The notes below the pieces were generated by a model. The model did not search any database. It was given only the letters and a program-made list of their open reading frames with translations, and was not told the DNA's origin. DNA of 25,543 nt from Myxococcota bacterium (GTDB taxonomy: Bacteria > Myxococcota > XYA12-FULL-58-9 > JABJBS01): assembly GCA_036339465.1 (NCBI GenBank), contig JAYZAY010000046.1:1-25543 (forward strand), written 5' to 3'. The translations under genes were made by a program, and so were the position numbers. This document shows, piece by piece, positions 1,263-16,601 of this stretch (positions are counted from its first letter, which is position 1; every line of letters starts with the position of its first letter).

Positions 1263-1517
1263 TCACGAGTTTGGGGGGAGTGTGGAGCGGGTGTTGCGCG
1301 CTTCGGCATCCGACTTTGCTGCTTTTTTATAGATCCTATAGATTAGAAAGCCCCCAATTCCGATGATTCCCAGGGGAAGAAAAGTTAGAAATGCGGTGGT
1401 GTTGATGAATGCAATCCGAGCTTCGTCGTTGCTTTCGAAGCAAACTGCGCATGCATGAGCGAGTGTGGGTAAGAACATGATGGGAAGGACGGCTAGGGCT
1501 GGTGCGAGGAACCGCAT
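1263..1517 (-). CDS. Small membrane protein with signal peptide, CxxC motif and one further TM helix; last gene of the oxidase operon
   Basis: Signal-like N-terminus ending LAHA, then CAVC, then a hydrophobic helix and a basic tail. The ATG directly follows the subunit III stop (TAG-ATG). Confidence 0.75.
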   Translation of the reverse strand: MRFLAPALAVLPIMFLPTLAHACAVCFESNDEARIAFINTTAFLTFLPLGIIGIGGFLIYRIYKKAAKSDAEARNTRSTLPPNS

Positions 1518-2126
1518 CTAGAGATAAACCTGAATATACAAGATTGGCCAAACGCCCACCACAAAGTACCAGAAGGCCTGGGCTGTCCAGAACGTGGACG
1601 GGTCTAGATTGTTTCTGAGTAGTTTCACCAGGGCGTAGCCCAAGATAAGAATGGCGCAGACGGCGTGGAGACCATGTATCCCGATGATGAGGTAGAAAAA
1701 GGCGCCGTGGGCACTAGAGGTAAGGGTGAGTCCTTGGGCAATGAGGGCCACCCACTCAAATCCCTGGGCCACCACGAAAAACACACCCAAGGCCAAACTC
1801 AAGAGCATGGGCCGAAGTGCTTTTTGATGGGCTTCTTTGAATTTGCGGTTGGCAAGCCAAAGAAAGATCCCACTCAGTATGAGGGCGGCGGAATTGAAAA
1901 GGGTTTGTTCGAGAGGCAACCGAGGTTGCCCAATGGGGGGCCAGATCCCGCCTGCGGCGTTGGATTTCACGATCATGTGCGCACTGACTAAGCCGGCGAA
2001 GAACATAATCTCCGTGAGGATAAAGACAATCATGCCCAATAAACCATTGGGAATGGCAGGTTTGCTCTTACTTTCGGGCGGTGTTTCTTTGACCATGGTT
2101 TTTTCCACGGTTGCGGCTACTGTCAT
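1518..2126 (-). CDS. Heme-copper oxidase subunit III family protein (second copy)
   Basis: FILTEIMFFAGL, GFEW, FFYLIIGIHGLH and FWYFVVGVW motifs with 5 TM helices. The ATG at 2126 overlaps the upstream TGA (TGATG). Confidence 0.92.
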   Translation of the reverse strand: MTVAATVEKTMVKETPPESKSKPAIPNGLLGMIVFILTEIMFFAGLVSAHMIVKSNAAGGIWPPIGQPRLPLEQTLFNSAALILSGIFLWLANRKFKEAHQKALRPMLLSLALGVFFVVAQGFEWVALIAQGLTLTSSAHGAFFYLIIGIHGLHAVCAILILGYALVKLLRNNLDPSTFWTAQAFWYFVVGVWPILYIQVYL

Positions 2127-2602
2127 CAATGATTCCCGGCGGCGCCGCTTTGTTCCAAGACACGCTGAATCTCGGCTTTAGCAGCGATATTTTCCCACTG
2201 TGGGATGGTTATAATTCCCTCAGCGGTTTCGATTTCGTGGATTGCGCCCTGGTGATTGAGCACGTCGGGAGCCACCGCGGAAAAGAAGAGAAGCATGAAG
2301 GCCAAGGAGGTAAACATAAGGTAGGAAATGTATTTTTTCTCCATCTTCAAATGCATGAATTCACTGGCTACTAAGTAGGCTTTCACGAGGGCAATCCCAA
2401 ATGCCGTAAAGAGCACAATGGCGCGTCCGATGCCCGGCTGGCCAAGCATTTCGCCAATTGTAGGCCCGACTTCAGGGCCTAGAAAGCTGATGAACGCCAA
2501 AACGAGCAAGGCACCGTAGATCTTGAGGTAGTGCTTGGTGTGGTCGTGGTGCTCGCCATGCTCTGAAGCGTTTTCGTGTGCTGCTGCTTGTTCTTCACTC
2601 AT
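2126..2602 (-). CDS. Prokaryotic cytochrome c oxidase subunit IV family protein
   Basis: His-rich N-terminus, 3 TM helices and the IALVKAYLVASEFMHLK signature. It lies between the two subunit III genes. Confidence 0.88.
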   Translation of the reverse strand: MSEEQAAAHENASEHGEHHDHTKHYLKIYGALLVLAFISFLGPEVGPTIGEMLGQPGIGRAIVLFTAFGIALVKAYLVASEFMHLKMEKKYISYLMFTSLAFMLLFFSAVAPDVLNHQGAIHEIETAEGIITIPQWENIAAKAEIQRVLEQSGAAGNH

Positions 2603-2624
2603 TTTTTAACCTCGAATGGACGAA

Positions 2625-3194
2625 TTATTTTGCAATGTAGAGAAGGGGGAAGAGGAAAACCCAAACCAGGTCGACAAAGTGCCAGTAGTTGGCGATGAGT
2701 TCCACCCGTTGTACTTCCTTATTCTGCCTCACGTCGTTGGCTATCCATATCATCAGTATCATTCCGGCGATGACGTGAAGTCCGTGGATGCCTGCGGCCG
2801 TGTAGTAGAAGCTCCAGAAGGTGTTGGCGGTAATGGTGTAGCCCAGTTCTATCTCATGGGACCATTCAAAGAATTTAACCACCAAAAACACCAGGCCAAA
2901 CCCCGTGGTGACCATGAGAAGTTTGGCTGCCTTTTTATTGTTGCCCATTTCAACGGCATTGTGGGCACAGACGGCAAAAAAACTGGAGGTCAGAAGAACC
3001 CAGGTGTTGAAGGCACCGGCGTAGATGTTGGTGTGAATGGAATAGTTTGCCCATTCAGGATGACCGATACGGTGCATGATATAGCTGGCGAGCAGGCCGC
3101 CAAAGATAACGATCTCCGAAACAATCACCCACCAAACCGCCAATCGGCCTGTGGGGATCCCCGTCGCACTTCGTGTGGTTGCAATCGGTTTCAT
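2625..3194 (-). CDS. Heme-copper oxidase subunit III family protein (first copy)
   Basis: IVSEIVIFGGL, NTWVLLTSS, KFFEW, GIHGLHV and YWHFVDLVWVFLFPLLY motifs. Confidence 0.94.
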   Translation of the reverse strand: MKPIATTRSATGIPTGRLAVWWVIVSEIVIFGGLLASYIMHRIGHPEWANYSIHTNIYAGAFNTWVLLTSSFFAVCAHNAVEMGNNKKAAKLLMVTTGFGLVFLVVKFFEWSHEIELGYTITANTFWSFYYTAAGIHGLHVIAGMILMIWIANDVRQNKEVQRVELIANYWHFVDLVWVFLFPLLYIAK

Positions 3195-3227: not shown

Positions 3228-4922
3228 TTAGGATTCGTTGGGCAAATGCTGGGGCCAGTAGTCATCGTCGCGTCCAGGCACACCATATTCGTAGGGGCCC
3301 CGGTAGACCGTGGGCATTTCTTTGAAGTTGCCGTGTGGCGGGGGAGAAGCTGTGACCCACTCCAATGTGGTTCCTTTCCAGGGGTTCTCACCGGCCTTTG
3401 GACCGAAGAAGATGCTCCAGAAAAAGTTGGTCAGAAACACGATTTGGAATACGATCAGGGTGACCAAGGCCATGGTCGCCAGGACCCGGAGGTTTTGAAG
3501 CTCGGTGGTGGCCAGCTCGGGGAAGTGTTGGTAATTGTAGATTCGTCGGTGCTGACCAGCACTGCCCAGCACAAAAAGCGGAATGAAGATGAAGTTGAAG
3601 GGGATAATCGTCCCCCAGAAGTGAATTTTACCGGCGGTCTCATTCATCAGGCGCCCAAACATCTTCGGAAACCAGTGGGTCAGGCCAGCAAACACCGCAA
3701 TAAAGGCGATAGGAAAGAACGTGTAGTGAAAGTGCGCGATGACAAAGTAGGTGTCGTGGAAATAAACGTCTGCACCACTGGCTCCTAAGAAGATCCCAGT
3801 GACCCCGCCAATGAGGAATTCGGCGATGAATGCCAAGGCCCAGAGCATGGGGGTGCTCAAGGTGATGGATCCTCCCCAAAGGCTCGCAATATAAATAAAG
3901 AGCATTTCCGCGATGGGAATGGAGATGAGCAAGGTGGTCACCGTAAATACATTGGCCATTCGGGGATCGATACCCGCGATGAACTGATGGTGGGCCCAAA
4001 CGAAGAAACTCAGAATACCCGTGGCAAAGGTGGTGTAGAGGATGGTCTTATAGGCAAAGAGCTTTTTACGGGCAAACACCGCGATAATCTCCGCCACGAT
4101 ACCCATGGCCGGCAGCAATACCACGTAAACCTCAGGGTGGCCAAAGAACCAGAAGAGGTGTTGCCAGAGCACGGGATCTCCACCGGCGCTCGGGTCGTAG
4201 AAGGTGGTGCCAATGACTTGATCCATAAACATCATCACCGCGCCGGCGATTAAGGGGCCTACCGAAGCCATAAAGAGAATACTGGCGATGACGATCATCC
4301 ATACCACGATGGGAACATCAAACATCTTCATGCCGGGGGCACGACTGTTCATGGCGGTGGTGATAAAATTAATACCCCCCAATAGGAAGGCCACAAATTC
4401 TAAGGCCACCGCGACCAACCACATTGAGGAGCCGAGCGGGGTTAAACTGTATTCGGCTTTGGCCGAGAGGGGGGGATAGGCTGTCCATGCGCCGCCGAAG
4501 CCACCTCCTTCCACGAAAAATGATGCCAGGATGATGACGGCACTGATAAAGAAAATTTGGTAGGAGAGGCGATTGATCCGCGGAAAGACCATATCGTCGC
4601 AACCGATCATCAGCGGAATCAAGAAGTTGCCAAAGGCGGCGATCAACACCGGCATGGCCACCCAAAAAACCATAATGGTGCCGTGGTTGGTGATGAGCGA
4701 ATTGTAATCACCGGGGGTTACTTTGCCGTAGAATGGGACCTCGATGCCCGGAAATGCCAATTGCATCCTGAAGGCGTAAACCAGGAAACCACCGATGAGG
4801 GCCATAAACATCCCCGTAAAGAGATACTGCATGCCAATGATTTTATGGTCTAATGGGAAAATATATTTGCTCACCCAACCCGGTTCATGGTGGGCATCAT
4901 GTGCGTGGTCTGCTGCACTCAT
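3228..4922 (-). CDS. ctaD: A-family heme-copper oxidase catalytic subunit I (atypical K-channel)
   Basis: H80, GHPEVY (H262/E264/Y266), WAHH (H311/H312), HDTYFVIAHFHY (H397/H399) and the RR pair. D-channel D110, N99, N117 and N185 are present. Confidence 0.97.
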   Translation of the reverse strand: MSAADHAHDAHHEPGWVSKYIFPLDHKIIGMQYLFTGMFMALIGGFLVYAFRMQLAFPGIEVPFYGKVTPGDYNSLITNHGTIMVFWVAMPVLIAAFGNFLIPLMIGCDDMVFPRINRLSYQIFFISAVIILASFFVEGGGFGGAWTAYPPLSAKAEYSLTPLGSSMWLVAVALEFVAFLLGGINFITTAMNSRAPGMKMFDVPIVVWMIVIASILFMASVGPLIAGAVMMFMDQVIGTTFYDPSAGGDPVLWQHLFWFFGHPEVYVVLLPAMGIVAEIIAVFARKKLFAYKTILYTTFATGILSFFVWAHHQFIAGIDPRMANVFTVTTLLISIPIAEMLFIYIASLWGGSITLSTPMLWALAFIAEFLIGGVTGIFLGASGADVYFHDTYFVIAHFHYTFFPIAFIAVFAGLTHWFPKMFGRLMNETAGKIHFWGTIIPFNFIFIPLFVLGSAGQHRRIYNYQHFPELATTELQNLRVLATMALVTLIVFQIVFLTNFFWSIFFGPKAGENPWKGTTLEWVTASPPPHGNFKEMPTVYRGPYEYGVPGRDDDYWPQHLPNES

Positions 4923-4962: not shown

Positions 4963-5694
4963 TCACGGTACGCCGACGGCGGCGACGGTCGTGCTTAGGG
5001 CTTTGTCGTCAATTTTGGAGGCCACCATGCCTTCGCTCTGGCTTTGCATCCATTTCTCGTGTTCCTCGGGTGTTTCAATAAAGATTCGGCCGCCCATCAT
5101 ACCATGGGCGATGCCGCAGATTTCGGCACACTGTATATCGTGTTCTCCGGTGCCTGTGGCTTTAAACCAGCCCGTGATGACTCGGCCGGGAATTGCATCC
5201 TGTTTCAATCTGAAAACAGGAACCGAGAAATCATGAAGCACATCCAATGATTCGAGCTTGTAATGATAGGTGGTTCCCACTTTGACATGCAGTTCGTCGG
5301 TGGTGCGGATATCATCTTTGGTATCGAGCTTGTTGTCTGGGCCGGGGTGCTGGAAGGTCCAACCCCATTGCTGTGAAATAATCCGGACGGTTGCTTCGGC
5401 CGGCGGAAGGGTTTGTTTGATATCCACCCAAACCGTCACGGCAAAATAAATAATAAAAACGTCACAAACCAAGACGGCGTAATGGGGCCAAGTGACCCAA
5501 CGTTTTTGATGGGCCTCTTCCCCGGTGATGTATTCGGAACGGACCCCTTCCTTGGCGCGATATTTCCAAATCAACCAGAAAAAGACACCTTCCGATAGCA
5601 CGAGCCAGATGCCCGTGAACCAGGCAACCAGGTTGACAAGGAAATCGAGATCAGATGCGTAGGTGGAGAGTGGTTCAACCAATGACTCTATCAT
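4963..5694 (-). CDS. ctaC: Cytochrome c oxidase subunit II (CuA, no fused cytochrome c)
   Basis: Two TM helices, QQWGW aromatic motif, and a complete CuA ligand set DVLH...CAEICGIAHGMM. Confidence 0.96.
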   Translation of the reverse strand: MIESLVEPLSTYASDLDFLVNLVAWFTGIWLVLSEGVFFWLIWKYRAKEGVRSEYITGEEAHQKRWVTWPHYAVLVCDVFIIYFAVTVWVDIKQTLPPAEATVRIISQQWGWTFQHPGPDNKLDTKDDIRTTDELHVKVGTTYHYKLESLDVLHDFSVPVFRLKQDAIPGRVITGWFKATGTGEHDIQCAEICGIAHGMMGGRIFIETPEEHEKWMQSQSEGMVASKIDDKALSTTVAAVGVP

Positions 5695-5829: not shown

Positions 5830-5898
5830 GTGATTTATCTGCTGGGTGATTTATCTGCTGCGTGATTTATTTGTTACCCCGTGATCTATTTGTTGCTG
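5830..5898. repeat. Four degenerate tandem copies of a 16-19 nt unit (GTGATTTATCTGCTG core)
   Basis: Copies start at 5830, 5846, 5862 and 5881. The first two are identical over 15 nt and the last overlaps the cytochrome c stop codon. Confidence 0.8.
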
Positions 5899-6533
5899 AG
5901 TGTCCCGATATAGGCAATGACGTCTTTCATCGCTTGCTCATTGGGCAAAACACCCGCCATACCAATCATCTGGGCGGCCACGGCATCCCGGGGGTCAGAG
6001 CCTCGGATTTTATGCTTGAACTTTTTGAGCGAGTTGAGCACATACCAATCGTTTAGGTGGGTGAGTGAAGGTGCGCTGAGGGCCTGATTCCCCGCTCCAT
6101 CCGTACCATGACAGGTGGTGCACACCGCGAAGTAGGCCTGGCCACGGGTGGAGTCGCCGGTTTGGGCGACTTGAGTGGGTGCGGGTTTGTTTTGGGGCAG
6201 GCTGGAGATGTGAAGCGCGACGGCCTCCACGTCTCGGTCTGTGGGCAGTGTGAGCGACATAGGGCGCATTTTGCGGCCCTCGAGGTCATCGGGATGCATG
6301 CCTCTCCACCCTTTTTTATATTTCATCAGTTGAGTTTGTAGGTACCACTGCTCCATGCCCGCGATAGCCGGGGCGTGAATCTTTTGGTTGCCCTGGCCGT
6401 TTTCCATATGACATGGAATGCAGCTTGCATAAAGGGCCTTACCACGGGCATGGGGTTCTTCAGGGATTTCCTTACAGCCCGTGGCGGCAATCATGGCTAT
6501 TAAAGCGATCCCTAAGACGATCAATCGTTTCAT
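5886..6533 (-). CDS. Diheme cytochrome c (c4-like), predicted lipoprotein
   Basis: CIPCH and CTTCH, APAIAG/APSL..L...Y class I motifs, distal Met motifs KMRPM and QMIGM, and a lipobox-like ATGC after the signal peptide. Confidence 0.93.
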   Translation of the reverse strand: MKRLIVLGIALIAMIAATGCKEIPEEPHARGKALYASCIPCHMENGQGNQKIHAPAIAGMEQWYLQTQLMKYKKGWRGMHPDDLEGRKMRPMSLTLPTDRDVEAVALHISSLPQNKPAPTQVAQTGDSTRGQAYFAVCTTCHGTDGAGNQALSAPSLTHLNDWYVLNSLKKFKHKIRGSDPRDAVAAQMIGMAGVLPNEQAMKDVIAYIGTLSNK

Positions 6534-6945
6534 TTCTTCCCTCTACCAACATACGAAGCTTGATGGTTTCCCATTCGGTATCCCAGTTTGCTACGCATCC
6601 TTGACGCTTCCGTGTTCTCTACCCGCGCAATTGCAAATCGATTGGTTCAAGTCCAGTCTTCAATTCGCGAATTCCAGGCCGGCGTTTGTCTGAGTACATA
6701 GCGTTTTCGTGTTCCGTATTCAACTAAACGCATTATTAATTTAGTCAGTTTTGGGTTCAAATTCAAATTTTCGAACCCTATATTCCATGGCATTACTCTA
6801 TGAAAATTATAAGGTTTTCGGAAGAAAATTGATGGATTTTATTACAGGTAAAATTATCTGTCGGGTTGACGGGCTACAGGCCCTTGGATTAACCGCATGT
6901 TTTGCGGCCCTCTCTGGGGCCTATAACGGTTGTGAGGTAACGCGG

Positions 6946-7578
6946 ATGATTAAGAAATTCCCAGGAATGTTGTTGTTTGTCATGGTTCTCTTTTCCTGCA
7001 AGAGTATCGAACGTAAGCTCCCCGAATATGGCGAGGTGCCTGTTTGGGCTTTCATGAATCAGGATGCGCAGCCCTTTGGCTCGGCGCAGCTTTCTGGGCG
7101 GGCGTGGGCGGCCAACTTTATATTTACATCGTGTCCCACGGCATGTCCGACCATCGCTAAGAAAACCCATACGGTTCAAGAGAAAATGCGAGAATGGTTG
7201 CCGCAAATAAAGGAAAACCGGCCTGTGCTTGTGTCTATCTCAGTGGACCCTCTCACAGATACCCCGGCAAAACTTCGGGAGTTTGGTTCCAAACACTATG
7301 CAGATCATAAAATTTGGCAGCTTGTCAGCGGTGATTATGATGCCATGGAAAATTTGGTAACCAAGGGATTTCTTCAAGCGCTCGATCGATCGGGAGGGAA
7401 GGGAGAAAAAACGTTGAAGGAGGCCCTTAATCGCGAACCGACCCCACTGGACACGGTGCACAGCATGCATTTTGTGTTGATTGATAAGGTGGGTAAAATT
7501 AGGGGCTTCTATGGGCAGGATGCCAATTCACTGACGCGTCTGGCCGCAGATCTAAGATATTTAAGTGAAAAAATATAG
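6946..7578 (+). CDS. SCO1/SenC family copper chaperone, predicted lipoprotein
   Basis: FIFTSCPTAC (CxxxC), SISVDP..DTP and HSMHFVLID..G.IRGFY motifs. Start placed at ATG 6946 (GAGGT RBS, LFSC lipobox) rather than 6751. Confidence 0.92.
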   Translation: MIKKFPGMLLFVMVLFSCKSIERKLPEYGEVPVWAFMNQDAQPFGSAQLSGRAWAANFIFTSCPTACPTIAKKTHTVQEKMREWLPQIKENRPVLVSISVDPLTDTPAKLREFGSKHYADHKIWQLVSGDYDAMENLVTKGFLQALDRSGGKGEKTLKEALNREPTPLDTVHSMHFVLIDKVGKIRGFYGQDANSLTRLAADLRYLSEKI

Positions 7579-7599: not shown

Positions 7600-8088
7600 C
7601 TACTTACCAAAGCCACGTACAATTTTGACCAATTCGGAGACGGTTTCAGGCTTGTTCATCAGGTCTGGGTTGCCTGGCATCAAGGGGCTTTTGCCCACCG
7701 ACATTCCACCATTGAGAATGATTTTTGTGAGATAGTCGTCTTTGACAGACGCTTGCCACCCTTTATTCGTCAAATTTCTGGGTTTCGGATTGAGATTGGC
7801 GGCGCCTGCGCCATCACCCAAGCCCGTAGCGCCATGGCATAGGGCACATCGTTGGGCGAAAATCTCCTTTGCCTCGGCGCCAGGATCTGCAGGCGCGGCC
7901 GCAGCGGCGGCGGCTCCCGCCGCAGGCACACCCGTGAGCCCGGGAGCTTTCACGGCTTGTTGAGCCGCGAGGGTGGGGGCGGCTTTTTTGGTGGCCTCGC
8001 TGGTGGTGGGTGTCTCGGATTTGGAACAAGCCGCCGCAGCGACGAGTGCCACAAGGCACAGGGATAGAGCGAAGTCTCGTTTCTTCAT
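7600..8088 (-). CDS. Monoheme cytochrome c lipoprotein with long Ala/Pro/Thr linker
   Basis: AAAC lipobox, low-complexity tether, CALCHGATGLGDG, PKPRNLT and the SPLMP distal Met. Confidence 0.92.
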   Translation of the reverse strand: MKKRDFALSLCLVALVAAAACSKSETPTTSEATKKAAPTLAAQQAVKAPGLTGVPAAGAAAAAAAPADPGAEAKEIFAQRCALCHGATGLGDGAGAANLNPKPRNLTNKGWQASVKDDYLTKIILNGGMSVGKSPLMPGNPDLMNKPETVSELVKIVRGFGK

Positions 8089-8163
8089 GGTGATCTCCGA
8101 GTGAGGGGTTCGTTGTTTATTTAAGTGGACAACCTCGATCGAGTTTATCGTAAGATTTCCGCG

Positions 8164-8847
8164 CTAGTTGGTGGCGGTGGCGTCAGTAGGGCCAGCTCCA
8201 TTTATGTCTGTACCTTGAGGAGCCCTTCCCTTTGCATTGGTATTTCTTATGGAGAGAAGATAGGCCACGAGATTTTTGACCCCAGCTGCCTGGAGGGTTG
8301 GTCCCCAAGGGGGCATGCCTTTCGCGGCGACGCCTTTCCAAAGTACCAAATAGTTGTCTTTGAGTTCACTGCCATGAAGCCAATAAGCATCGGTTAAATT
8401 AGGTCCCGTAAGCCCCTCCCCATTCTGACCGTGGCAACCGGTGCATAGGGATTTGAATGTGGCTTTTCCGGCTTTGATGGTGGGCGCGCTGTCACCAAGA
8501 CTGGCCAAGACCTCGTTGGTGACGCCATCCAGAATTTTCGCCTCCACGGCGAGAATTTGTTCTGCGGTGGGAACCACAGGCGCCCACGTACCGGCGGCGA
8601 GTTCCGCTTCTACCTTCGCCATCGCCTCGGTGATGGGCATTTTTACAAAACCCAATTCCTTGTCGGCCCAGTCATAGGTGTTCAGTGCCGTCTTTTGATC
8701 GGCAAGGTATTCCTTTTTTGCAAAGTCATTTACATTGATGTGGCGGTGTTCTTCCCACTCTTGGGCCGCGGCCGCGACGATGAGAACCGTAACCGTCGCG
8801 AACACGATGGTCAGAGTTTTAGAGATGCCAATGAGTTTCTGTTCCAT
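8164..8847 (-). CDS. ActG-like membrane subunit fused to a CcoP-like monoheme cytochrome c
   Basis: N-terminal TM helix, ActG-like motif LNTYDW...GFVKMPITEAM, and C-terminal CTGCHG..G.G..GPNLTDAYWLHG...KGMPPW. Start placed at ATG 8847 (AGGTGA RBS). Confidence 0.82.
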   Translation of the reverse strand: MEQKLIGISKTLTIVFATVTVLIVAAAAQEWEEHRHINVNDFAKKEYLADQKTALNTYDWADKELGFVKMPITEAMAKVEAELAAGTWAPVVPTAEQILAVEAKILDGVTNEVLASLGDSAPTIKAGKATFKSLCTGCHGQNGEGLTGPNLTDAYWLHGSELKDNYLVLWKGVAAKGMPPWGPTLQAAGVKNLVAYLLSIRNTNAKGRAPQGTDINGAGPTDATATN

Positions 8848-8887
8848 GTTATCACCTAACGTCAAACCCGAAAATTATGGTTCCAGA

Positions 8888-10132
8888 TTAAAAATTTTCG
8901 TAGGAAAGAGCTTCTTTGAGCCGAGGGTCTTGGATTGGTATCAGCTTTTTACCGCGCATGGCGTAGCCGATGGTGCCCACAAACATGCCGCCTATGCCTA
9001 GGAAACAAGTAAGGTCGAGGATACTGAAGGGGATCTCGCCCGCAAGAGCATGACCATGGGAACTCATGGTAGGCATGACCATAAAATAATGGTCCACCCA
9101 GTGGAAAAAGAGGAGCCACACGGCCCAGCAGGCAAGGATTCTAGTACGCCTTTTGGCGTGTCGGGAAATCAAACCCACATAGGGGATGAAAAAATGCCCT
9201 AGGATGAGAAACCACACCATGTAGTTCCATTCGCCTGTTTTTCTGACGATGTACCACTGTGTTCCTTCGGGCATACTGGCATACCAAATCAACATATATT
9301 GAGAAAAACCAATGTAACCCCAGAAGAACACAAAGCCAAAAAGCAATTTACCGAGGTCATGGTAATGTTCGACGTTGATAAATTCACCGATCTTGCCCTG
9401 GGATTGGAGGTATTTTGAACCCAAAATCAGACATGCGAGGCACGACATGAAACAGCCGGCAAAATAGTAGACGCCAATGATGGTGCTGAACCAGTGAAAT
9501 TCCAAGGTCATCACCAAGTCCACAGCGGCGAAGCTGATGGTGAGGGCGAGCACGACCATGCCCGGCGCGGATACTTTTTCCATTTGCAGCGTGTTGAGCA
9601 CCTCACCACTCTCATCTTGTTCTAGGGACTTCTTATTGAAGTAACGCGCTAGGCACACCCAAAATAAGAAATAGAATGCGCAGCGGCCCGCAAAGAAGGG
9701 AATGTTGAGGTAGGGCTCTTTGAGGTGGAGCATGTGGTCTGTTTTAGCGAGCGCGTGGTTTGTCCATGCGTAGAGTTCGTGGTTGCCCATGAGCGTGGTA
9801 ATGATGTTGGGAAGGAACAAAAGCGCCAGGATGGGAAGCGCGTTACAAATAAGCTCCGCCTGGCGACGCAGGGTCACACTCCAGCCCGCTCTCGTGAGAT
9901 GCTGGAGGGTAACGAAAAACAAAGCGCCTAGGGCGATACTTAGGAAATATGAAAAGTTGGTTAGGTAGGAGTGGAGGAAGTTTGCCCACTGGTCGTTATG
10001 GGATTGGCCAATGGCTCCACTTGCAATTAGACTAACGATACCAATCCCAAAGCTAAAGAGGGTGATTTTACCCAGCTTGTCGTCGGCTTGAACCTCGGGT
10101 CCCTTGGTTGACGGCATATGTTTCGCGCTCAT
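8888..10132 (-). CDS. actF: Alternative complex III subunit ActF
   Basis: Polytopic membrane protein with QHLTRAGWS, EPYLN, DLVMTLEFHWFSTI and HYHDLGKLLFGF..FWGY..FSQYMLIWY motifs, in act operon position. Confidence 0.93.
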   Translation of the reverse strand: MSAKHMPSTKGPEVQADDKLGKITLFSFGIGIVSLIASGAIGQSHNDQWANFLHSYLTNFSYFLSIALGALFFVTLQHLTRAGWSVTLRRQAELICNALPILALLFLPNIITTLMGNHELYAWTNHALAKTDHMLHLKEPYLNIPFFAGRCAFYFLFWVCLARYFNKKSLEQDESGEVLNTLQMEKVSAPGMVVLALTISFAAVDLVMTLEFHWFSTIIGVYYFAGCFMSCLACLILGSKYLQSQGKIGEFINVEHYHDLGKLLFGFVFFWGYIGFSQYMLIWYASMPEGTQWYIVRKTGEWNYMVWFLILGHFFIPYVGLISRHAKRRTRILACWAVWLLFFHWVDHYFMVMPTMSSHGHALAGEIPFSILDLTCFLGIGGMFVGTIGYAMRGKKLIPIQDPRLKEALSYENF

Positions 10133-10154
10133 TAGAATGCTCTCCGCTTCTCAA

Positions 10155-11366
10155 TCATTGAAACTTAGATTGCTTGTCTTTTTTAAGGTCAGCAACCTTG
10201 GCGTATTGGCTTCGTTGCAGGGCTCGAATGTAGGCCACGATAGCCCACCTGTCATTTACGGCGACACTGTGTCCATAGCCCATCATGTTTCGAATGCCGT
10301 TGGTAATAGTATTGAATATTTGTCCGTGGGGTTGGGTGCGCAGGTAGCCCTGGTGGAGGGAGGTGGGAGGAACCCAGGCACTTTGCCCTGTGGAGAGGGC
10401 TCTGCGGTTAACCATGCCGTTGCCATCGCCTGTTTCTCCGTGGCACGCTGAGCAATGGATATTAAATTGCTTTTGTCCGTTGGCAAGTAAGCTTTGATTG
10501 ATCACGACTTGTTTTGGAAGGGTGGCCGCCCATTGGTCGTCAACGATTCCGCGAAAAAAGTGGTCATCGAGTTGAGCTTCACCCACCGCCACGGTGCCGG
10601 GTATCTTTGAGCGCATGCTGCGGCCATCGGCGTAGAGTGAATTTTCGCTTTGCGACTTGAATTTTTGCTGGAAATCCATGTTCGGGTTGGGGTGGATGCG
10701 CGTGTTTTCCATGTGACTTACGCGGGCTTTTCCAATGACCGCGAGGGGAATGAATCCCGCGACGAAGAAACAAAGTCCCGCAGCGAGCAGTGGTTTGGGA
10801 ATGGCGGCACCAATGTGTCGATCATCCTCACATACTTCGAGGCTTAAGGGATCGGTGTCGCGCAGGAGTGCTTGGCTCGCGGTTGGATTGTATTTGGGGT
10901 CCGCGGCCTCGATGGCAATAAAGAATCGGTCATCGGTGGCGCGCGCGAATTTCTTAATGCGATTCAACGGATGGTGGAACGAAGGAAGCATATTTATCGC
11001 GAGACATCCAAAAATCGCGGTCAATGCGGAAAATAGAACCGTGAGTTCGAAGCCTACGGGCACATTCGCAGGCAAACTCCAGAGGGGTTTACCGCTGATG
11101 AGATATTCGTAGTCGTAGGCGTTCATCCACCACTGCATCAAGAGGGCGACACAGGTCCCGGTGATACCAGCGCCAAAGATAAGCCATGGCAGCTTGGTGG
11201 GTTTAATGCCCATGGCAGGGTCGATGCCATGAACGGGAAATGGAGCGTAACTGTCCCACTTCGTGTAGCCGGCATCTCGCACTTTTTCGCACGCCTTCAC
11301 CAGCTTGGCTGTGGTGTCGTATTCGGCGAGTAGGCCGTAGACTTTGGTATTTGAATCTTCTGTCAT
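10155..11366 (-). CDS. Fused ActD (DUF3341-like) and ActE (monoheme cytochrome c)
   Basis: The N-half has D.YAPFPVHGID..MG, ISGKP...PA.VPVGFELTVL and TDDRFF. The C-half has NMDFQ.K, DGRSMR...GTVA, CSACHG, GIRNM and DRWAIVAYIRALQ. Confidence 0.92.
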   Translation of the reverse strand: MTEDSNTKVYGLLAEYDTTAKLVKACEKVRDAGYTKWDSYAPFPVHGIDPAMGIKPTKLPWLIFGAGITGTCVALLMQWWMNAYDYEYLISGKPLWSLPANVPVGFELTVLFSALTAIFGCLAINMLPSFHHPLNRIKKFARATDDRFFIAIEAADPKYNPTASQALLRDTDPLSLEVCEDDRHIGAAIPKPLLAAGLCFFVAGFIPLAVIGKARVSHMENTRIHPNPNMDFQQKFKSQSENSLYADGRSMRSKIPGTVAVGEAQLDDHFFRGIVDDQWAATLPKQVVINQSLLANGQKQFNIHCSACHGETGDGNGMVNRRALSTGQSAWVPPTSLHQGYLRTQPHGQIFNTITNGIRNMMGYGHSVAVNDRWAIVAYIRALQRSQYAKVADLKKDKQSKFQ

Positions 11367-11385
11367 CCTAACCTCTTATGCTCCG

Positions 11386-12801
11386 TTACTCGTGTTCTGC
11401 TTTATAGTGGGGGTCAGCCTCGGGCATCACCGCTTTTACTTCCGCGATGGCGACCATGGGGACCCACCGAATGAAGAGAAGGAATAGGGTGAAAAAGAGC
11501 CCAAAACTTCCTAAGAGCATCAAACCATCGAACATGGTTGGCTCGAAATAGGCCCAGCTTGAGGGTAAGAAATCTCGACTGAGGGAGGTCACTGTGATGA
11601 CGAATCGCTCAAACCACATACCGATGTTCACGAAAATGGAGACCACAAACATAAACCAAGGGGTCTGTCGACACCACTTAAACCAGAAGAGTTGAGGCGA
11701 GATAACGTTGCACGAAACCATGATCCAATAAGCCCACCAATAGGGTCCGAAGGCCCGGTTGATGAATGCAAATTGCTCGATTTCGTTGGCGCTGTACCAT
11801 GCCATGAAGAATTCCATGGCGTAGGCGTAGCCGACCATGCTGCCGGTGACCAAGATAATCTTATTCATATTATCAAGGTGGCGAACGGTGATGAGATTCT
11901 TCATCCCGAAAAATTCCCGGCAGGGAACAGCCAGGGTGACCACCATTCCAAAGCCACTAAAGATGGCGCCAGCCACAAAGTAGGGCGGGAAGATAGTGGT
12001 GTGCCAACCCGGGAGCTGGGAGGTGGCAAAGTCGAAGGATACCACAGAGTGAACCGACAAAACCAGTGGCGTGGCGAGCCCGGCGAGGATGAGATACACC
12101 CGCTCATAGCGGTGCCAGTGGCGGGAAGAGCCTGTCCAGCCCATAGAGAAAATGCCGTACATGATCTTGCGGATCTTGGTGGAGGCGCGATCCCTGAGCG
12201 TCGCCAAATCGGGAAGCATTCCGAAATACCAAAAGAGGATAGAGACGGTGGCATAGGTTCCAACCGCGAATACGTCCCAAAGCAATGGGCTTCGGAAGTT
12301 GGGCCACATCTCCATTTGGTTGGGAATCGGAAAGAGCCAATACGCCGCCCAGACGCGGCCGATGTGGATGCCCGGAAAGGTCGCCGCACAAATGACGGCA
12401 AAAACAGTCATGGCTTCGGCAAAACGTGCAATGCTGTTTCGCCATTTTTGTCGGAATAGGAAAAGAACGGCGGAAATCAACGTTCCTGCGTGGCCAATAC
12501 CGACCCAGAAGACGAAATTGACGATAGGCCAACCCCAGCCAACGGGGTTGTTGTTGCCCCAGATCCCAACCCCTTCCCAGAGGAGGTAGGCGATACAGGC
12601 GCCAAACATTCCTAGAACCGAAACAGAGGCAAGGAAGGCCACCCACCAGTTACGGTTGATCCGAGCTTGTTCAGGCACGGAACAAATGGCTTCTGTAACG
12701 TCTGCAAAGTCGGCAGCACCGAGGGTTAGGAGGGCCCGTTTTCCCGGTGTTTCTTCTGTGTTGTCGTCCAAAATATCATTGGAAATGACGGCTGAGGTCA
12801 T
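11386..12801 (-). CDS. actC: Alternative complex III subunit ActC (NrfD/PsrC family quinol-binding subunit)
   Basis: [55 protein letters not shown] and GMWFERFVI motifs. Confidence 0.96.
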
Positions 12802-12804
12802 GGT

Positions 12805-15800
12805 TTACACCTTTGCCAAGTCAGGGTTTACGTTGCGTATTTTTCCGAGCATTTCGGTTCGCGGACGGAGATTTAACCCCCCCAACATTCCGTATGACCG
12901 GGCGAGCTTTCGCAGTTTGGATACCCGACTGTTTTTGTCGTTGATATCGCCGAAAACGATGGCGTCGCTGCCGCAGGTTTGTGCACAGGCGGGCGTGATA
13001 TCGCCGTCTGCTAGGGGCCGCTTCTCGTTGCGCGCCGTATCCTTAGCTTGTTTGATGCGCTGGATACAATACGTGCATTTTTCCATGACCCCTCGGAAAC
13101 GCACGGTAACGTCGGGATTAAACTGCATGGTCTTGACTTTATTTTCCGGTGTCTTCAGGTCCTCGTGATAATTATGATAGTTGAAGCGCCGTACTTTCAA
13201 GGGGCAGTTGTTGAGGCAATATCTTGTTCCCACGCAGCGGTTGTAGACCATATCGTTGAGGCCTTCTTCGGTGTGGAGGGTCGCGGCCACGGGACAGACC
13301 TGTTCGCAGGGGGCATTCTCACAATGCACACAGGCAACGGGTTGGCTAAGAATGGTTGGGTCTTCCTCATCCCCAGCAAAATAGCGGTCAAGTCGGAGCC
13401 ACTGCATCTCGCGGCCCTTTAATACCTGATCCTTGCCCGCCACGGGAACGATATTCTCGGTGTTACAGGCCATGATACAAGCGTTGCACCCATTACATTT
13501 GGAGAGATCGATCGACATCCCCCATTGGTGGTCGGCCTTGTACTCGAGGGCACCGAAAAGTTGTTCCTGCTTGTATTTATCGATCACCGGAAGGTGGTGT
13601 TCGTATTTCGTACTATCGACGTAGCCTGGGTCTTTTTGGTATTCGGCAAGGGACGTTTCCCGAATAAGGGTATGGGCGCGGCGTTCTCGTTCTTGGTAAC
13701 CGGTGTCATCGATAGCGTGGTGATTTTGGGTGCTTGCCAGTTCGTAATCCGCGCCGGTGGCGGTGATGGTTACGCCCTTTCTTTGAAAGGCCGACGAACT
13801 TCGGCGAATTGCGGAAACATCAAAACCGGGAGATGCGACACTCAATTTGGCAGACCCCCCGACGTGTCCGGCCTCCTCGCGCCCGTAGCCGAGGGCCACG
13901 GCAATAGAGCCGGTGGGCTGTCCCGGAAGCGTATAGACGGGGAGTGTTACCGATTGACCGCCGATTTCTAGCTTGATCATTTGGCCGTCATTGACCTTGA
14001 GGGTCTTGGCCGTGGATGGGCTTAATAGGGCGGCGTTATCCCAGGTGAGTTTGGTGGTGAAGTCGGGTAGCTCTTGGAGCGAACCATTGTTGGCAAAACG
14101 CCCATCATAGACCTTACCGTCATCGATAAAGGTAATCTCGTATTCCCCGTTTTTGAGATTGTCGTGTGAATTCAGCGAACCTGAATTCGGTGGGGTAATG
14201 GAGAAGGATTGAAGGGTGGCATCGGTCTTAACCGGGTAATCTGTGTTTGGCACTATGCCGTCTTGCACGAGTTTTCGCCAAGTGCGGTCGTTTTTGTTGG
14301 GCGCTGCGGCCACGGCGGTATCCGTGTTGGCCGCGGAAGGAGCTGTGTCAGCCTTTTCTGCTTCAAGGGCAGCGGGGTTGCCTCCTGCCATTGTCAATGC
14401 AGTGGCGCGAACCAAGGCATAGGCGGAATCTTCGCGGCCCATGAGCTTGAGGAGTAATTCTATTTGGGAATGAGACTTGTAGAGTGGCTCTAAGAGGGGT
14501 TGGGCGACGGAATAAGTACCGCTGAAAGAACGACCATCGCTCCAGGTTGCCAGCGCATGCGTTTCAGGAAGATGCCAGGTTGCGAGCGCAGCCGTCTCAT
14601 TGGCATATAAGCCCAGGTGAATCTTATTTTTCACCTTGTTCATGGCTTCGCCAAATTTCAGATCGCCTGTGGCGGAATAGGCGGGATTGGCTCCTAAGAT
14701 GAGGAGTGTATCCACCTTGCCTGTGTTCATGTCACTGGCCAGGGTTTTGATGGCTCGGTACTGGTTGGAGTTCGTTTTCGCGGCTATCCCTAAGACACTT
14801 AGGGTCTTGCCTAAATTACCCAAGGCTACATTCAACCGATGGGCCAAGGCGTGAACCTCCGCCGGTTGTCTGTATCCGACCGTGAGCAAGGATTTTCCTT
14901 GATTGGCCGCGAGGTCTTTGGCGAGGGCTTTGACCCAGGCAGCGATCTTGTGTGCTTTCAAAAAACCGGAATTGGGTGTCGCTTCTGGCCCCTCGATGGT
15001 CACACCGTGGGCTTTGAGAGCGCCCTGAAGTGCCAGAAGAAAGGGTTTAAGTTGTTCGTGCCGCAGTGGCAGGCGGTGGTCAGAAGAGACGCCGGAACTT
15101 GAGAAATGACTCTCCACGGCGTAGAGCCGATTCATCTTTCCGGCTTCAGGGTTTCGATTGTCCCCCCATTCCTTGGTGTGTCTGAGGGCTTCTGGATGTT
15201 CCGTGAGGAAGTCTCCGTCTAGATTAACGATGATTTCTGCTTTGGCCACATTGTATCGGACCCTCGTGCCTGCCCCGAATGCGATTTGGGCTCCCTCATC
15301 GACGTTGTCGCGGTTAAAAGTGGTGAATTCTGTCCAAGTGGCCTTGGGGAAGGCACTCAGAAAATCAGCCTTCACTTTGGCTAAGGTAACCGAGGCGCTC
15401 GGCTCTGCTAAAACGCGAAGGTTTTGGCCGCCGTTGGCCTTCAACTTGCCCAATAACTTCGATAAGTACTTGTCGAAGGTTTTGGCATCGCTGGGTTTGC
15501 CCCCCTGCAGGATTTGTTGGCTGCGGTCGGGGTCATAGAGCCCGAGGATGGATGCCTGAGCGTAGGTGCTACAGGCACCAAGGCTTGCTGGGTGCAGGGG
15601 ATTGCCTTCTATTTTGATTGGGCGCCCTTCGTAGCTGGTAACGCTCAAGCCTTGGCTGAATCCGCCGAGATTGAAAAGAGTAGCGTAGCTTTTGGTTTGG
15701 CCGGGTACCAGGCCAGCGGGTCGGCGCGTATGGGGAAGAATCTTCTCTTTGGCCCACATACCAGGACCTTCCAAAATGCAACCGCTGGCGCTTGATAGGG

Positions 15801-15969
15801 CCAGGGATGCGCCCATGAGCTGCATGAATCGCCGGCGCGAGACTGAGCCAGGTGCATCGACATTGACGTCTTTGAATTCCCGATGGAGATATCCTTGAAA
15901 TTCGGAGTTTTCGGCCAATTCGTCGAGACTACGCCAGTAATTTTCTGCTTTTGATTTTATCGATGACAT
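12805..15969 (-). CDS. actB: Alternative complex III subunit ActB (molybdopterin-oxidoreductase-like domain plus Fe-S domain)
   Basis: YWRSL.EL N-terminus, TAT motif SRRRFM and lipobox ASGC, EGRPIKIEGNP.HP. C-terminal Fe-S motifs are CNGCNACIMAC, CVHCENAPCEQVCP, CVGTRYCLNNCP and CTYC..PACAQTC. ATG 15969 overlaps the actA end. Confidence 0.96.
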   Translation of the reverse strand: MSSIKSKAENYWRSLDELAENSEFQGYLHREFKDVNVDAPGSVSRRRFMQLMGASLALSSASGCILEGPGMWAKEKILPHTRRPAGLVPGQTKSYATLFNLGGFSQGLSVTSYEGRPIKIEGNPLHPASLGACSTYAQASILGLYDPDRSQQILQGGKPSDAKTFDKYLSKLLGKLKANGGQNLRVLAEPSASVTLAKVKADFLSAFPKATWTEFTTFNRDNVDEGAQIAFGAGTRVRYNVAKAEIIVNLDGDFLTEHPEALRHTKEWGDNRNPEAGKMNRLYAVESHFSSSGVSSDHRLPLRHEQLKPFLLALQGALKAHGVTIEGPEATPNSGFLKAHKIAAWVKALAKDLAANQGKSLLTVGYRQPAEVHALAHRLNVALGNLGKTLSVLGIAAKTNSNQYRAIKTLASDMNTGKVDTLLILGANPAYSATGDLKFGEAMNKVKNKIHLGLYANETAALATWHLPETHALATWSDGRSFSGTYSVAQPLLEPLYKSHSQIELLLKLMGREDSAYALVRATALTMAGGNPAALEAEKADTAPSAANTDTAVAAAPNKNDRTWRKLVQDGIVPNTDYPVKTDATLQSFSITPPNSGSLNSHDNLKNGEYEITFIDDGKVYDGRFANNGSLQELPDFTTKLTWDNAALLSPSTAKTLKVNDGQMIKLEIGGQSVTLPVYTLPGQPTGSIAVALGYGREEAGHVGGSAKLSVASPGFDVSAIRRSSSAFQRKGVTITATGADYELASTQNHHAIDDTGYQERERRAHTLIRETSLAEYQKDPGYVDSTKYEHHLPVIDKYKQEQLFGALEYKADHQWGMSIDLSKCNGCNACIMACNTENIVPVAGKDQVLKGREMQWLRLDRYFAGDEEDPTILSQPVACVHCENAPCEQVCPVAATLHTEEGLNDMVYNRCVGTRYCLNNCPLKVRRFNYHNYHEDLKTPENKVKTMQFNPDVTVRFRGVMEKCTYCIQRIKQAKDTARNEKRPLADGDITPACAQTCGSDAIVFGDINDKNSRVSKLRKLARSYGMLGGLNLRPRTEMLGKIRNVNPDLAKV

Positions 15970-16601
15970 GTTGAGCAATCCAGTGAGGGATTTACGTTAT
16001 AAAGCTCTTTGAGCTTGGTTCCGAGGTGGGGATCGGTGGGTTTCCAATCCATGGCCGTGATATGCTCCACGGGTCGTAAATGTTGTTCCGGGGCTTTGTG
16101 GCAGTCGAGGCACCAACCCATACTGAGGGGCTCATGCTGGTAGACGACTTCCATTTGGTCCACCCGGCCGTGGCAAGAAACGCAACCAACACCTTTGGTT
16201 ACGTGAGCTGCGTGGTTGAAGTATGCGTAGTCGGGCAGGTCGTGAACCCGAACCCACTCAATGGGGTTGCCGGTTTTCCACGATTCTCGTACGGGTGCCA
16301 ATTTCGGACTCTCCGTATGAATCTTACTATGGCAATTCATACAGGTCTGAGTTGCGGGAATGGGTGAATGCGTGGCTTGCTCCACCGTCGTGTGGCAGTA
16401 GCGGCAGTCGACTCCAAGCTCGCCGACATGGAGCGCGTGGCTAAACGGGACGGGCTGGGTTGGCTGATAGCCCACATCGGTGGTGGCAGGCGAAAAGCCA
16501 AAGTTCACAATGAGAAAGGCATAAAACCCGCCACCGGCAACAGCTAAACCCACAAGAAATTTTATCTTATTGGTCCATGGCGGAAACTGAAACACACTCA
16601 T
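15957..16601 (-). CDS. actA: Alternative complex III subunit ActA (pentaheme cytochrome c)
   Basis: One TM helix, QPVPFSHALH, five CxxCH motifs (CRYCH, CMNCH, CVSCH, CLDCH, CSTCH) and LSMGWC. Confidence 0.96.
   Translation of the reverse strand: MSVFQFPPWTNKIKFLVGLAVAGGGFYAFLIVNFGFSPATTDVGYQPTQPVPFSHALHVGELGVDCRYCHTTVEQATHSPIPATQTCMNCHSKIHTESPKLAPVRESWKTGNPIEWVRVHDLPDYAYFNHAAHVTKGVGCVSCHGRVDQMEVVYQHEPLSMGWCLDCHKAPEQHLRPVEHITAMDWKPTDPHLGTKLKELYNVNPSLDCSTCHR

Follow-up and report, generated by a model that had tools for sequence, protein, structure and literature searches.

A candidate K-type proton path at the subunit I/II interface of a Myxococcota aa3-type oxidase without the K-channel lysine

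The DNA analyzed here (the window) is a stretch of 25,543 nucleotides from a Myxococcota bacterium (contig JAYZAY010000046.1 of assembly GCA_036339465.1). On its minus strand, coxI (3228-4922) encodes a 564-residue A-type heme-copper oxidase subunit I with the HPEVY motif, and coxII (4963-5694) encodes the 243-residue CuA subunit II, which has two membrane helices and no fused cytochrome c (Pfam COX2). The K pathway is fully lost from this subunit I (K362M, T359I and S299A in Rhodobacter sphaeroides numbering). The K-channel lysine is treated as essential in textbook A-type oxidases, and K362M in R. sphaeroides is reported to be nearly inactive. Meanwhile, subunit I has gained three glutamates within the membrane, and the second transmembrane helix (TM2) of subunit II holds a buried aspartate; a carboxylate in this helix follows the loss of the lysine among relatives in the same phylum. 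We regard it as an evenly balanced proposition that a K-type proton path has been rebuilt at the interface of subunits I and II after the canonical K pathway was lost.

The coxI product matched Pfam COX1 (E 3.7e-128). Its top match among PDB chains in a phmmer search was R. sphaeroides aa3 (1M56_A, E 3.7e-120), and Paracoccus denitrificans 1AR1/1QLE matched as well (E 2.7e-117). The initial annotation had reported three extra membrane-embedded glutamates in subunit I, and both their codons and their equivalences held in translation and in the alignment to 1M56_A. Glu175 stands at the S197 position in helix IV, in the upper D-channel (codon GAA, 4398-4400), Glu339 at the I361 position in helix VIII (GAA, 3906-3908), and Glu368 at the L390 position in the middle of helix IX (GAA, 3819-3821). 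In an AlphaFold2 model of subunit I with a mean predicted local distance difference test score (pLDDT) of 93.2, they lie inside membrane helices IV (162-192), VIII (320-348) and IX (357-379), respectively. Glu339 directly adjoins the lost lysine, with Glu339-Met340 (3903-3908) occupying the I361-K362 positions. A passage of PMC3084760 defines the A-type K-channel residues as Lys354, Thr351 and Ser291 in P. denitrificans numbering; the enzyme has M340, I337 and A277 there, which align with K362, T359 and S299 of 1M56_A. The same alignment pairs A178 with S200, F179 with S201, E264 with E286, Y266 with Y288 and E278 with H300.

Conservation was followed in 227 distinct subunit I proteins of the clade to which the enzyme belongs, in 100 species-level genome loci, from 98 of which subunit II was recovered, and in the 150 top-ranking representatives of clusters formed at 50% identity. 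The three glutamates are invariant or near-invariant across the clade proteins: E175 and E339 were present in 227/227 and E368 in 222/227 (5 Thr), and the lysine position held M in 208, L in 18 and T in 1. The species-level loci gave E175 in 100/100, E339 in 99/100 and E368 in 93/100 (A 3, T 2, C 1, L 1). Among the 150 representatives, the full glutamate combination was found nowhere beyond the query's own cluster and fragments. In lysine-bearing representatives of the other clusters, Glu occurred in 0/84 at position 175 and in 0/89 at position 339. The glutamates are not a matter of chance. Residue 368 in these representatives was most commonly L, M or T (together 77/88), and one of them, P0148, has Glu. 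New hydroxyls were also found, namely a ladder along helix VII (T293, T297, T301 and S305, at the P315, A319, I323 and G327 positions; 4008-4046) and the clade-specific Ser334 of helix VIII (A356 position; 3921-3923). The counts were 221/227 for T297, 224/227 for T301, 225/227 for S305 and 227/227 for S334.

In subunit II of 98 species, D17 was present in 98/98, H71 (lower TM2, 5482-5484) in 97/98 and D78 (mid-TM2, 5461-5463) in 98/98; the low-entropy, conserved face of TM2 (70/71, 75, 78, 81/82, 85, 89) includes both H71 and D78. The R. sphaeroides TM2, by comparison, has no charged residue after the entrance Glu101. The residue aligned with Glu101 is Gln63 (5506-5508), where the three commonest residues in the clade are E (68), Q (13) and L (10). 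At the TM1 position of Glu35 (5590-5592), they are E (67), Q (24) and L (3).

The relation between lysine loss and the TM2 carboxylate was examined in control loci that were not selected by that carboxylate. For the lysine-less control, 20 loci of other A-type enzymes in the phylum were taken by rank; all 20 proved lysine-less, carrying Leu or Ile where the lysine would be, and 18 of them yielded a subunit II. Since the relatives of the lysine-bearing P0126 in the phylum reached 48% identity at best, lysine-bearing controls were sought with P0132 instead, which gave 19 loci, all with Lys, and subunit II for 17. One or more acidic residues (Asp or Glu) were present in the TM2 core of 18/18 lysine-less enzymes versus 0/17 lysine-bearing relatives. 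In the lysine-less set (loci L109-L126), the TM2 motif was VVDG[ND]L in 14 and YIEG...VVVE in 4, the latter four with acids at both the 71 and the 78 columns, and the 17 lysine-bearing controls kept LExxWT..P, the canonical motif of the entrance. None of the other lysine-less control enzymes has Glu at any of positions 175, 339 and 368. On our reading of these sequences, what lysine-less enzymes have in common would be a TM2 carboxylate of subunit II in the core of the membrane. The correlation is a strong hint rather than a statistic.

Subunits I and II were then co-folded with two hemes, alongside three controls. The predicted complex reached an interface score (ipSAE) of 0.92 versus 0.00 for the best of the three controls, with contacts that agreed between runs to at least 98% and a partner pLDDT of at least 85; the calibration mark for this score, reached by 116/157 solved complexes and 2/215 mismatched pairs, is a rough one here because of our own alignments and the ligands. 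The packing of helices VIII and IX against the subunit II helices, as held by the initial annotation, was seen in this complex. Interface residues were 334-335, 338-339, 341-343 and 345-346 of helix VIII, 363, 366-367, 370-371, 374-375 and 377-378 of helix IX, 34-35 among others of subunit II TM1, and 66-67, 70-71, 74-75, 78 and 81-82 of TM2. E339 of subunit I and E35, H71 and D78 of subunit II are thus all listed at the interface. The listed I:II pairs 345-38, 348-41, 370-35 and 367-35 place TM1 in a groove that helices VIII and IX form, with Glu35 in contact with 367 and 370 of helix IX. From the helix register, the other stripe of helix VIII (346, 342/343, 339, 335, 332, 328) would face the antiparallel TM2, and Glu339 would be level with TM2 74/75, with His71 a turn beneath it and Asp78 a turn over it.

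Glu339 is read as part of a rebuilt K-type path because the TM2 carboxylate tracks lysine loss, and because His71, Glu339 and the hydroxyls have been added around it. Under this proposal, the clade would have dismantled the canonical K pathway and rebuilt a path on the wall facing subunit II. Its core would be the Asp78 carboxylate buried in TM2, around which the clade would have added His71, lower on the same helix, and Glu339 of helix VIII, at a height between the two. Thr293, Thr297, Thr301 and Ser305 of helix VII together with Ser334 of helix VIII would line the old channel volume. P315, G327 and A356 serve as corners of the K-channel volume in an R. sphaeroides simulation study (PMC10341450), and these positions correspond to Thr293, Ser305 and Ser334 in the clade enzyme. 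Along these groups, the "chemical" protons would travel from the cytoplasm to the heme a3-CuB site and Tyr266, and Glu368 would be an auxiliary polar liner, not an obligatory one. The initial annotation had suggested that E339 and E368 could form a proton wire with E35, H71 and D78 of subunit II. The part concerning E339, H71 and D78 gained support, as E339, E35, H71 and D78 lie at the predicted interface and H71 and D78 are near-invariant, but E368 is unlisted at the interface and replaced in some species, and E35 is E or Q. The broader form of the idea, that the mid-membrane K-path group of lysine-less A-type oxidases moved to subunit II TM2 and was extended here to a His71(II)-Glu339(I)-Asp78(II) relay, is put forward tentatively, and we think it rather less probable than its opposite.

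Sister forms suggest an order for these events. P0122 (63% identical) and the locus L084 (G051:C193) share E175, A178, F179 and Q313 with the clade and are without E339 and E368. In P0122, residues 339, 340 and 368 are V, I and L, and L084 has F337, V339, H340 and L368, that is, a His at the lysine position. In L084, the only intermediate locus with subunit II examined, position 71 of subunit II is Thr and Asp78 is kept; the single His71 exception among the 98 species is therefore the same locus that is without E339 and E368. L084 is a natural intermediate. Another sequence, P0154, was dropped as an intermediate form, being riddled with frameshifts, and no close relative of P0122 above 69% identity was found in the phylum among 401 genomes. 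In an unrooted FastTree of 126 sequences, the clade groups with P0122, then with the lysine-less P0125, P0187 and P0265, all nested in a mixed lysine-bearing and lysine-less group. Subject to rooting, lysine loss would have come first, E175 second and E339/E368 last. The tree also places P0257 beside the clade, an oxidase-like protein of 504 residues in which the CuB histidines and the tyrosine are missing (N, N, L and L at 262, 311, 312 and 266) and which may be a degenerate paralog or a long-branch artifact.

Because the sister forms carry E175 without E339 and E368, E175 is treated separately. Of the initial proposal of three extra glutamates as a candidate replacement ion pathway, its presence, conservation and D-channel location stood, but its grouping with E339 and E368 did not. 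S197 is listed among the D-channel residues in PMC10341450, and Glu175 at this position stands right above the two serines that were lost. Glu175 would belong to a separate and older remodeling of the upper D-channel, in which Ser200/Ser201 became Ala178-Phe179 (4386-4391), with A178 in 226/227 and F179 in 227/227 clade proteins. Judged from its position, it is probably a relay or pKa-tuning partner just below the kept Glu264. Outside the clade and its sister P0122, the only case of Glu at 175 among the 150 representatives was P0245, a lysine-less A2-type enzyme (YSHP) of another cluster.

Several points weigh against a rebuilt interface path. The controls are kin and represent few independent lineages (three lysine-less sequence types and few lysine-bearing ones), and every named clade member encountered is a metagenome-assembled genome. 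For a textbook pair such as this one, a complex prediction may score well because the predictor has memorized solved oxidase structures. E368 is not listed at the interface, which marks it as merely uncertain (its neighbors 366-367 and 370-371 are listed), and it is A, T, C or L in 7/100 species. The hydrogen-bond reach of E339 to H71 and D78 is drawn from interface lists and helix register, and in electrostatic terms a glutamate does not match a lysine. P0122 has no protonatable residue at 339, 340 or 368, so that, judging from its subunit I, a lysine-less enzyme can apparently do without E339. Finally, Zhu, Gennis and co-workers are reported to have found in 2010 that bulky S200/S201 replacements (S200V/S201V-type) leave the R. 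sphaeroides enzyme active but non-pumping. The clade enzyme may therefore be less coupled, and not repaired by E175.

The observations were weighed against other explanations. The buried Glu, His and Asp might be purely structural, a hydrogen-bond or ion-pair network between helices that glues subunit II to helices VIII and IX, while chemical protons would travel elsewhere, for instance along the helix VII ladder or wholly by the D-channel. E339 and E35, H71 and D78 of subunit II do all lie at the predicted interface, the exchange of E35 with Gln fits hydrogen bonding better than obligatory protonation, and P0122 manages without E339 and E368. However, packing alone does not call for carboxylates that are buried level with the lost lysine and never vary, the same helices pack without them in all 17 lysine-bearing relatives, the subunit II carboxylate follows lysine loss in all 18 of the others, and the His at the lysine position of the sister form points to a need for a protonatable group. 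We thus consider a purely structural role unlikely. Less likely again is altered coupling, in which fewer or no protons would be pumped and the glutamates would serve charge compensation or pKa tuning. It draws on the near-invariant S200A and S201F and on the changes D109 and R118 at the D-channel entrance (121/121), but D110, N99, N117, N185 and E264 are all kept, and the enzyme is the only terminal oxidase found in the genome.

Two further explanations concern what the glutamates might bind or replace. A carboxylate cluster with a histidine resembles a metal site, and Glu339/Glu368 with His71/Asp78 of subunit II could coordinate Na+, Ca2+ or a transition metal, either for structure or as a Na+ path. 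A Na+ site had been one of the suggestions of the initial annotation, and none of the results spoke in its favor. His71 and Asp78, however, are seven residues and about 10 Å apart on one helix and cannot share one ion, clade members are labeled from many source types beyond sea water, and E368 is dispensable in some species; this makes a cation site quite improbable. The initial annotation had also offered the possibility that the glutamates take up the room where the farnesyl tail would be, the active-site heme being tail-less (heme b-type). The helix VIII/IX packing argument alone speaks for it. The genome, however, encodes both heme O synthase (CtaB; TIGR01473, 247 bits) and heme A synthase (CtaA; PF02628, 126 bits), each above cut-off, and the enzyme is the only heme-copper oxidase found to use their products, so the tail-less heme is disfavored and we give it hardly any credence. 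The coxI product is the sole PF00115 match in the window's genome (92.8% complete), and cytochrome bd was not found in the same genome; because of this, the enzyme has to work. It is most likely, from this gene content, the working terminal oxidase of the organism and uses a farnesylated heme.

The active site is intact. Our best reading is that coxI encodes the catalytic subunit of a cytochrome c oxidase of the aa3 type that is whole and reduces oxygen. Of the six histidine ligands of the low-spin heme, the high-spin heme and CuB, five (H80, H262, H312, H397, H399) were invariant and H311 nearly so in a 76-sequence alignment, and H262, H311 and H312 were each present in 120/120 sequences. The HPEVY motif (residues 262-266) keeps Glu264 and Tyr266 (4125-4133), the equivalents of E286 and the cross-link Tyr288, each in 227/227 clade proteins. 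D110, N99, N117, N185 and E264, which mark the D-channel of the A1 subtype, are kept; the upper serines S200/S201 are not. The CuA ligands H154, C189, E191, C193, H197 and M200 of subunit II were invariant in 72 sequences. Nitric oxide reductases, as described in a section of PMC11214002, have no cross-link tyrosine and an altered metal site, whereas Tyr266 and the three CuB histidines are present here; the conserved glutamate that the same section gives for sNOR is in a different location, and sNOR is not the family of this subunit I.

Further changes in subunit I were noted. Two that the initial annotation had pointed out are indeed present: WAHHM has become WAHHQ (3984-3998, from residue 309), in which the CuB ligands H311/H312 are followed by Gln313 in place of Met, and GMPRR has become GQHRR (3543-3557, from residue 456), which keeps the Arg pair and has Gln-His for Met-Pro. 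Both Q313 and H458 occur in 227/227 clade proteins, and Met is found at the 313 position in 85/89 lysine-bearing representatives. His458 contacts Gln188 of subunit II in the predicted complex (pair 1:458-2:188), the residue before the CuA ligand Cys189 (CuA loop 5095-5235), and Phe450 stands at R. sphaeroides position 472, canonically a His near GxxRR; this may alter the CuA-to-heme a region or the proton exit side. Around the D-channel entrance (4569-4598, covering D109, D110 and R118), an extra Asp109 precedes the entrance Asp (CDDM) and Arg118 replaces the second Asn of PRxNN; Gln122 replaces a conserved Trp, and Q32 is also among the changed residues. All are found in 121/121 clade sequences. 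Glu278 (4089-4091), at the H300 position on lower helix VI near the K-path entrance, is E in 166 and D in 61 of the 227, and E or D is common there outside the clade too.

The sequences place the enzyme in a tight clade of mostly uncultured Myxococcota-labeled bacteria. The 120 closest clusters of a large protein collection were 76-100% identical to the query subunit I, and those that had names all came from metagenome-assembled genomes, labeled as Myxococcota-type or "Deltaproteobacteria". The outcome did not change when a relative from a closed 9.4-Mb genome served as the query of a second search, and no cultured species appeared among the names shown for 240 listed clusters. The 200 closest relatives listed were 72-82% identical to subunit I, and a relative is encoded in 581 candidate stretches of genomes at species level. 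In the phylum, 63/401 sampled genomes matched within the identity band of the window's own gene; these 63 include the window's genome, the sister form and the unpublished G195, and residues were checked in 23 of them.

The remaining oxidase genes follow on the minus strand at 1518-3194 (Pfam), giving the order subunit II, subunit I, COX3-like (2625-3194), COX4_pro (2126-2602) and a second COX3-like gene (1518-2129). Two COX3-like genes thus flank COX4_pro, the last two genes overlap by 4 bases (2126-2129), and subunit III is in this arrangement either split or duplicated. The oxidase genes are followed at once by an 84-residue open reading frame (1263-1517, minus strand), whose product has a CAVC motif, a single membrane helix and an N-terminus that resembles a signal. 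It has no Pfam match, has relatives in 37/80 related loci, and may be a small oxidase subunit or an assembly factor. Upstream of the oxidase genes are a lipoprotein-like diheme cytochrome c (5886-6533) and SCO1 (6751-7578), the latter on the strand opposite to the oxidase operon. Alternative complex III (Act) genes occupy 7600-16601 on the minus strand, with multiheme ActA-like, Fe-S ActB-like, NrfD ActC-like and ActD-cytochrome c members and further membrane and cytochrome c proteins; the ActD-like subunit (10155-11366, minus strand) is fused to a C-terminal monoheme cytochrome c domain. RNA-library contigs over coxI are too thin to show transcription, with one 275-nt contig at 4077-4351 with 8 differences in X20, and three contigs within 4434-4921 in X19, which is taken as RNA by guess.

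The case matters in that a natural K-to-M enzyme seems to serve its host as sole terminal oxidase. Should the interface relay be true, there would be a second way of feeding chemical protons to the oxygen site, in which subunit II gains a catalytic role: an accessory subunit would become obligatory in a deep-membrane proton path, and a glutamate-based path would replace a lysine-based one. With Glu175 beside the gating Glu264, the clade would then be a natural experiment on both proton channels, and E339, E175 and H71 and D78 of subunit II would be defined residues on which current models of gating and charge compensation in the channels could be tried. The pairing of lysine loss with a TM2 carboxylate offers a simple rule, checkable across the superfamily.

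That the K-channel can be lost is on record from sequence data. In PMC8239418, Degli Esposti et al. (2021) catalogued K-channel variants of family A ("KC-channel", "hybrid", "modified") and inferred several independent losses. As in their lysine-less family A, the enzyme has a non-ionizable residue at the lysine position of an otherwise family A COX1. The table of their Fig. S7 has no row with the clade pattern Y, A, M and I at P. denitrificans 280, 291, 354 and 351, and it covers only the entrance Glu of COX2, not a buried TM2 carboxylate nor positions 197, 361 and 390. The "KC" type concerns protonatable residues at four helix VII positions of cbb3-type oxidases, tabulated by Vibrio cholerae CcoN position; helix VII of the clade enzyme has Thr/Ser at 293, 297, 301 and 305, which may or may not fall in the same columns. 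In the literature searched, from which most subscription journals fall outside, no description of these glutamates or of the buried subunit II carboxylate was found. New here are the conservation of His71 and Asp78 of subunit II, the interface prediction, and the control of lysine against carboxylate.

Compared with the canonical A1 aa3 enzymes of R. sphaeroides and P. denitrificans, the clade enzyme shares the twelve-helix core, all heme and CuB ligands, and the Glu and cross-link Tyr of HPEVY; it also keeps the Asp and Asn residues at the mouth of the D-channel, both arginines of GxxRR and a CuA-bearing subunit II. Unlike them, it has all of K362, T359, S299, S200 and S201 replaced, and its novelties are Glu175/339/368, the helix VII Thr/Ser ladder, Ser334, Gln313, His458, and His71 and Asp78 of subunit II. 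The Act-linked subtype a-I rows in the PMC8239418 table are A2-type with lysine, and Act-linked operons are usually A2 according to a passage of PMC6431628. Like subtype a-I, the oxidase genes here cluster with alternative complex III and an SCO gene; unlike it, the enzyme has HPEVY with Glu (A1-like) and no lysine, and hence neither the A2 form nor a canonical K pathway. The ba3 oxidase of Thermus thermophilus has a K-pathway analog with a subunit II glutamate at its entrance, and no D-channel. This analog also figures in a table note of PMC3084760. As in ba3, protons would be delivered in the clade enzyme without a lysine, by way of hydroxyls and a subunit II carboxylate. In ba3, however, the subunit II Glu sits at the channel mouth, whereas the carboxylate of the clade is in the membrane core, the D-channel entrance and Glu264 are kept, and the enzyme is A-type. 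The other lysine-less A-type oxidases of the phylum (L109-L126, Leu/Ile at the lysine position) share the TM2-core carboxylate; unlike them, the clade has Glu175, Glu339, Glu368 and His71, and its TM2 motif differs from theirs.

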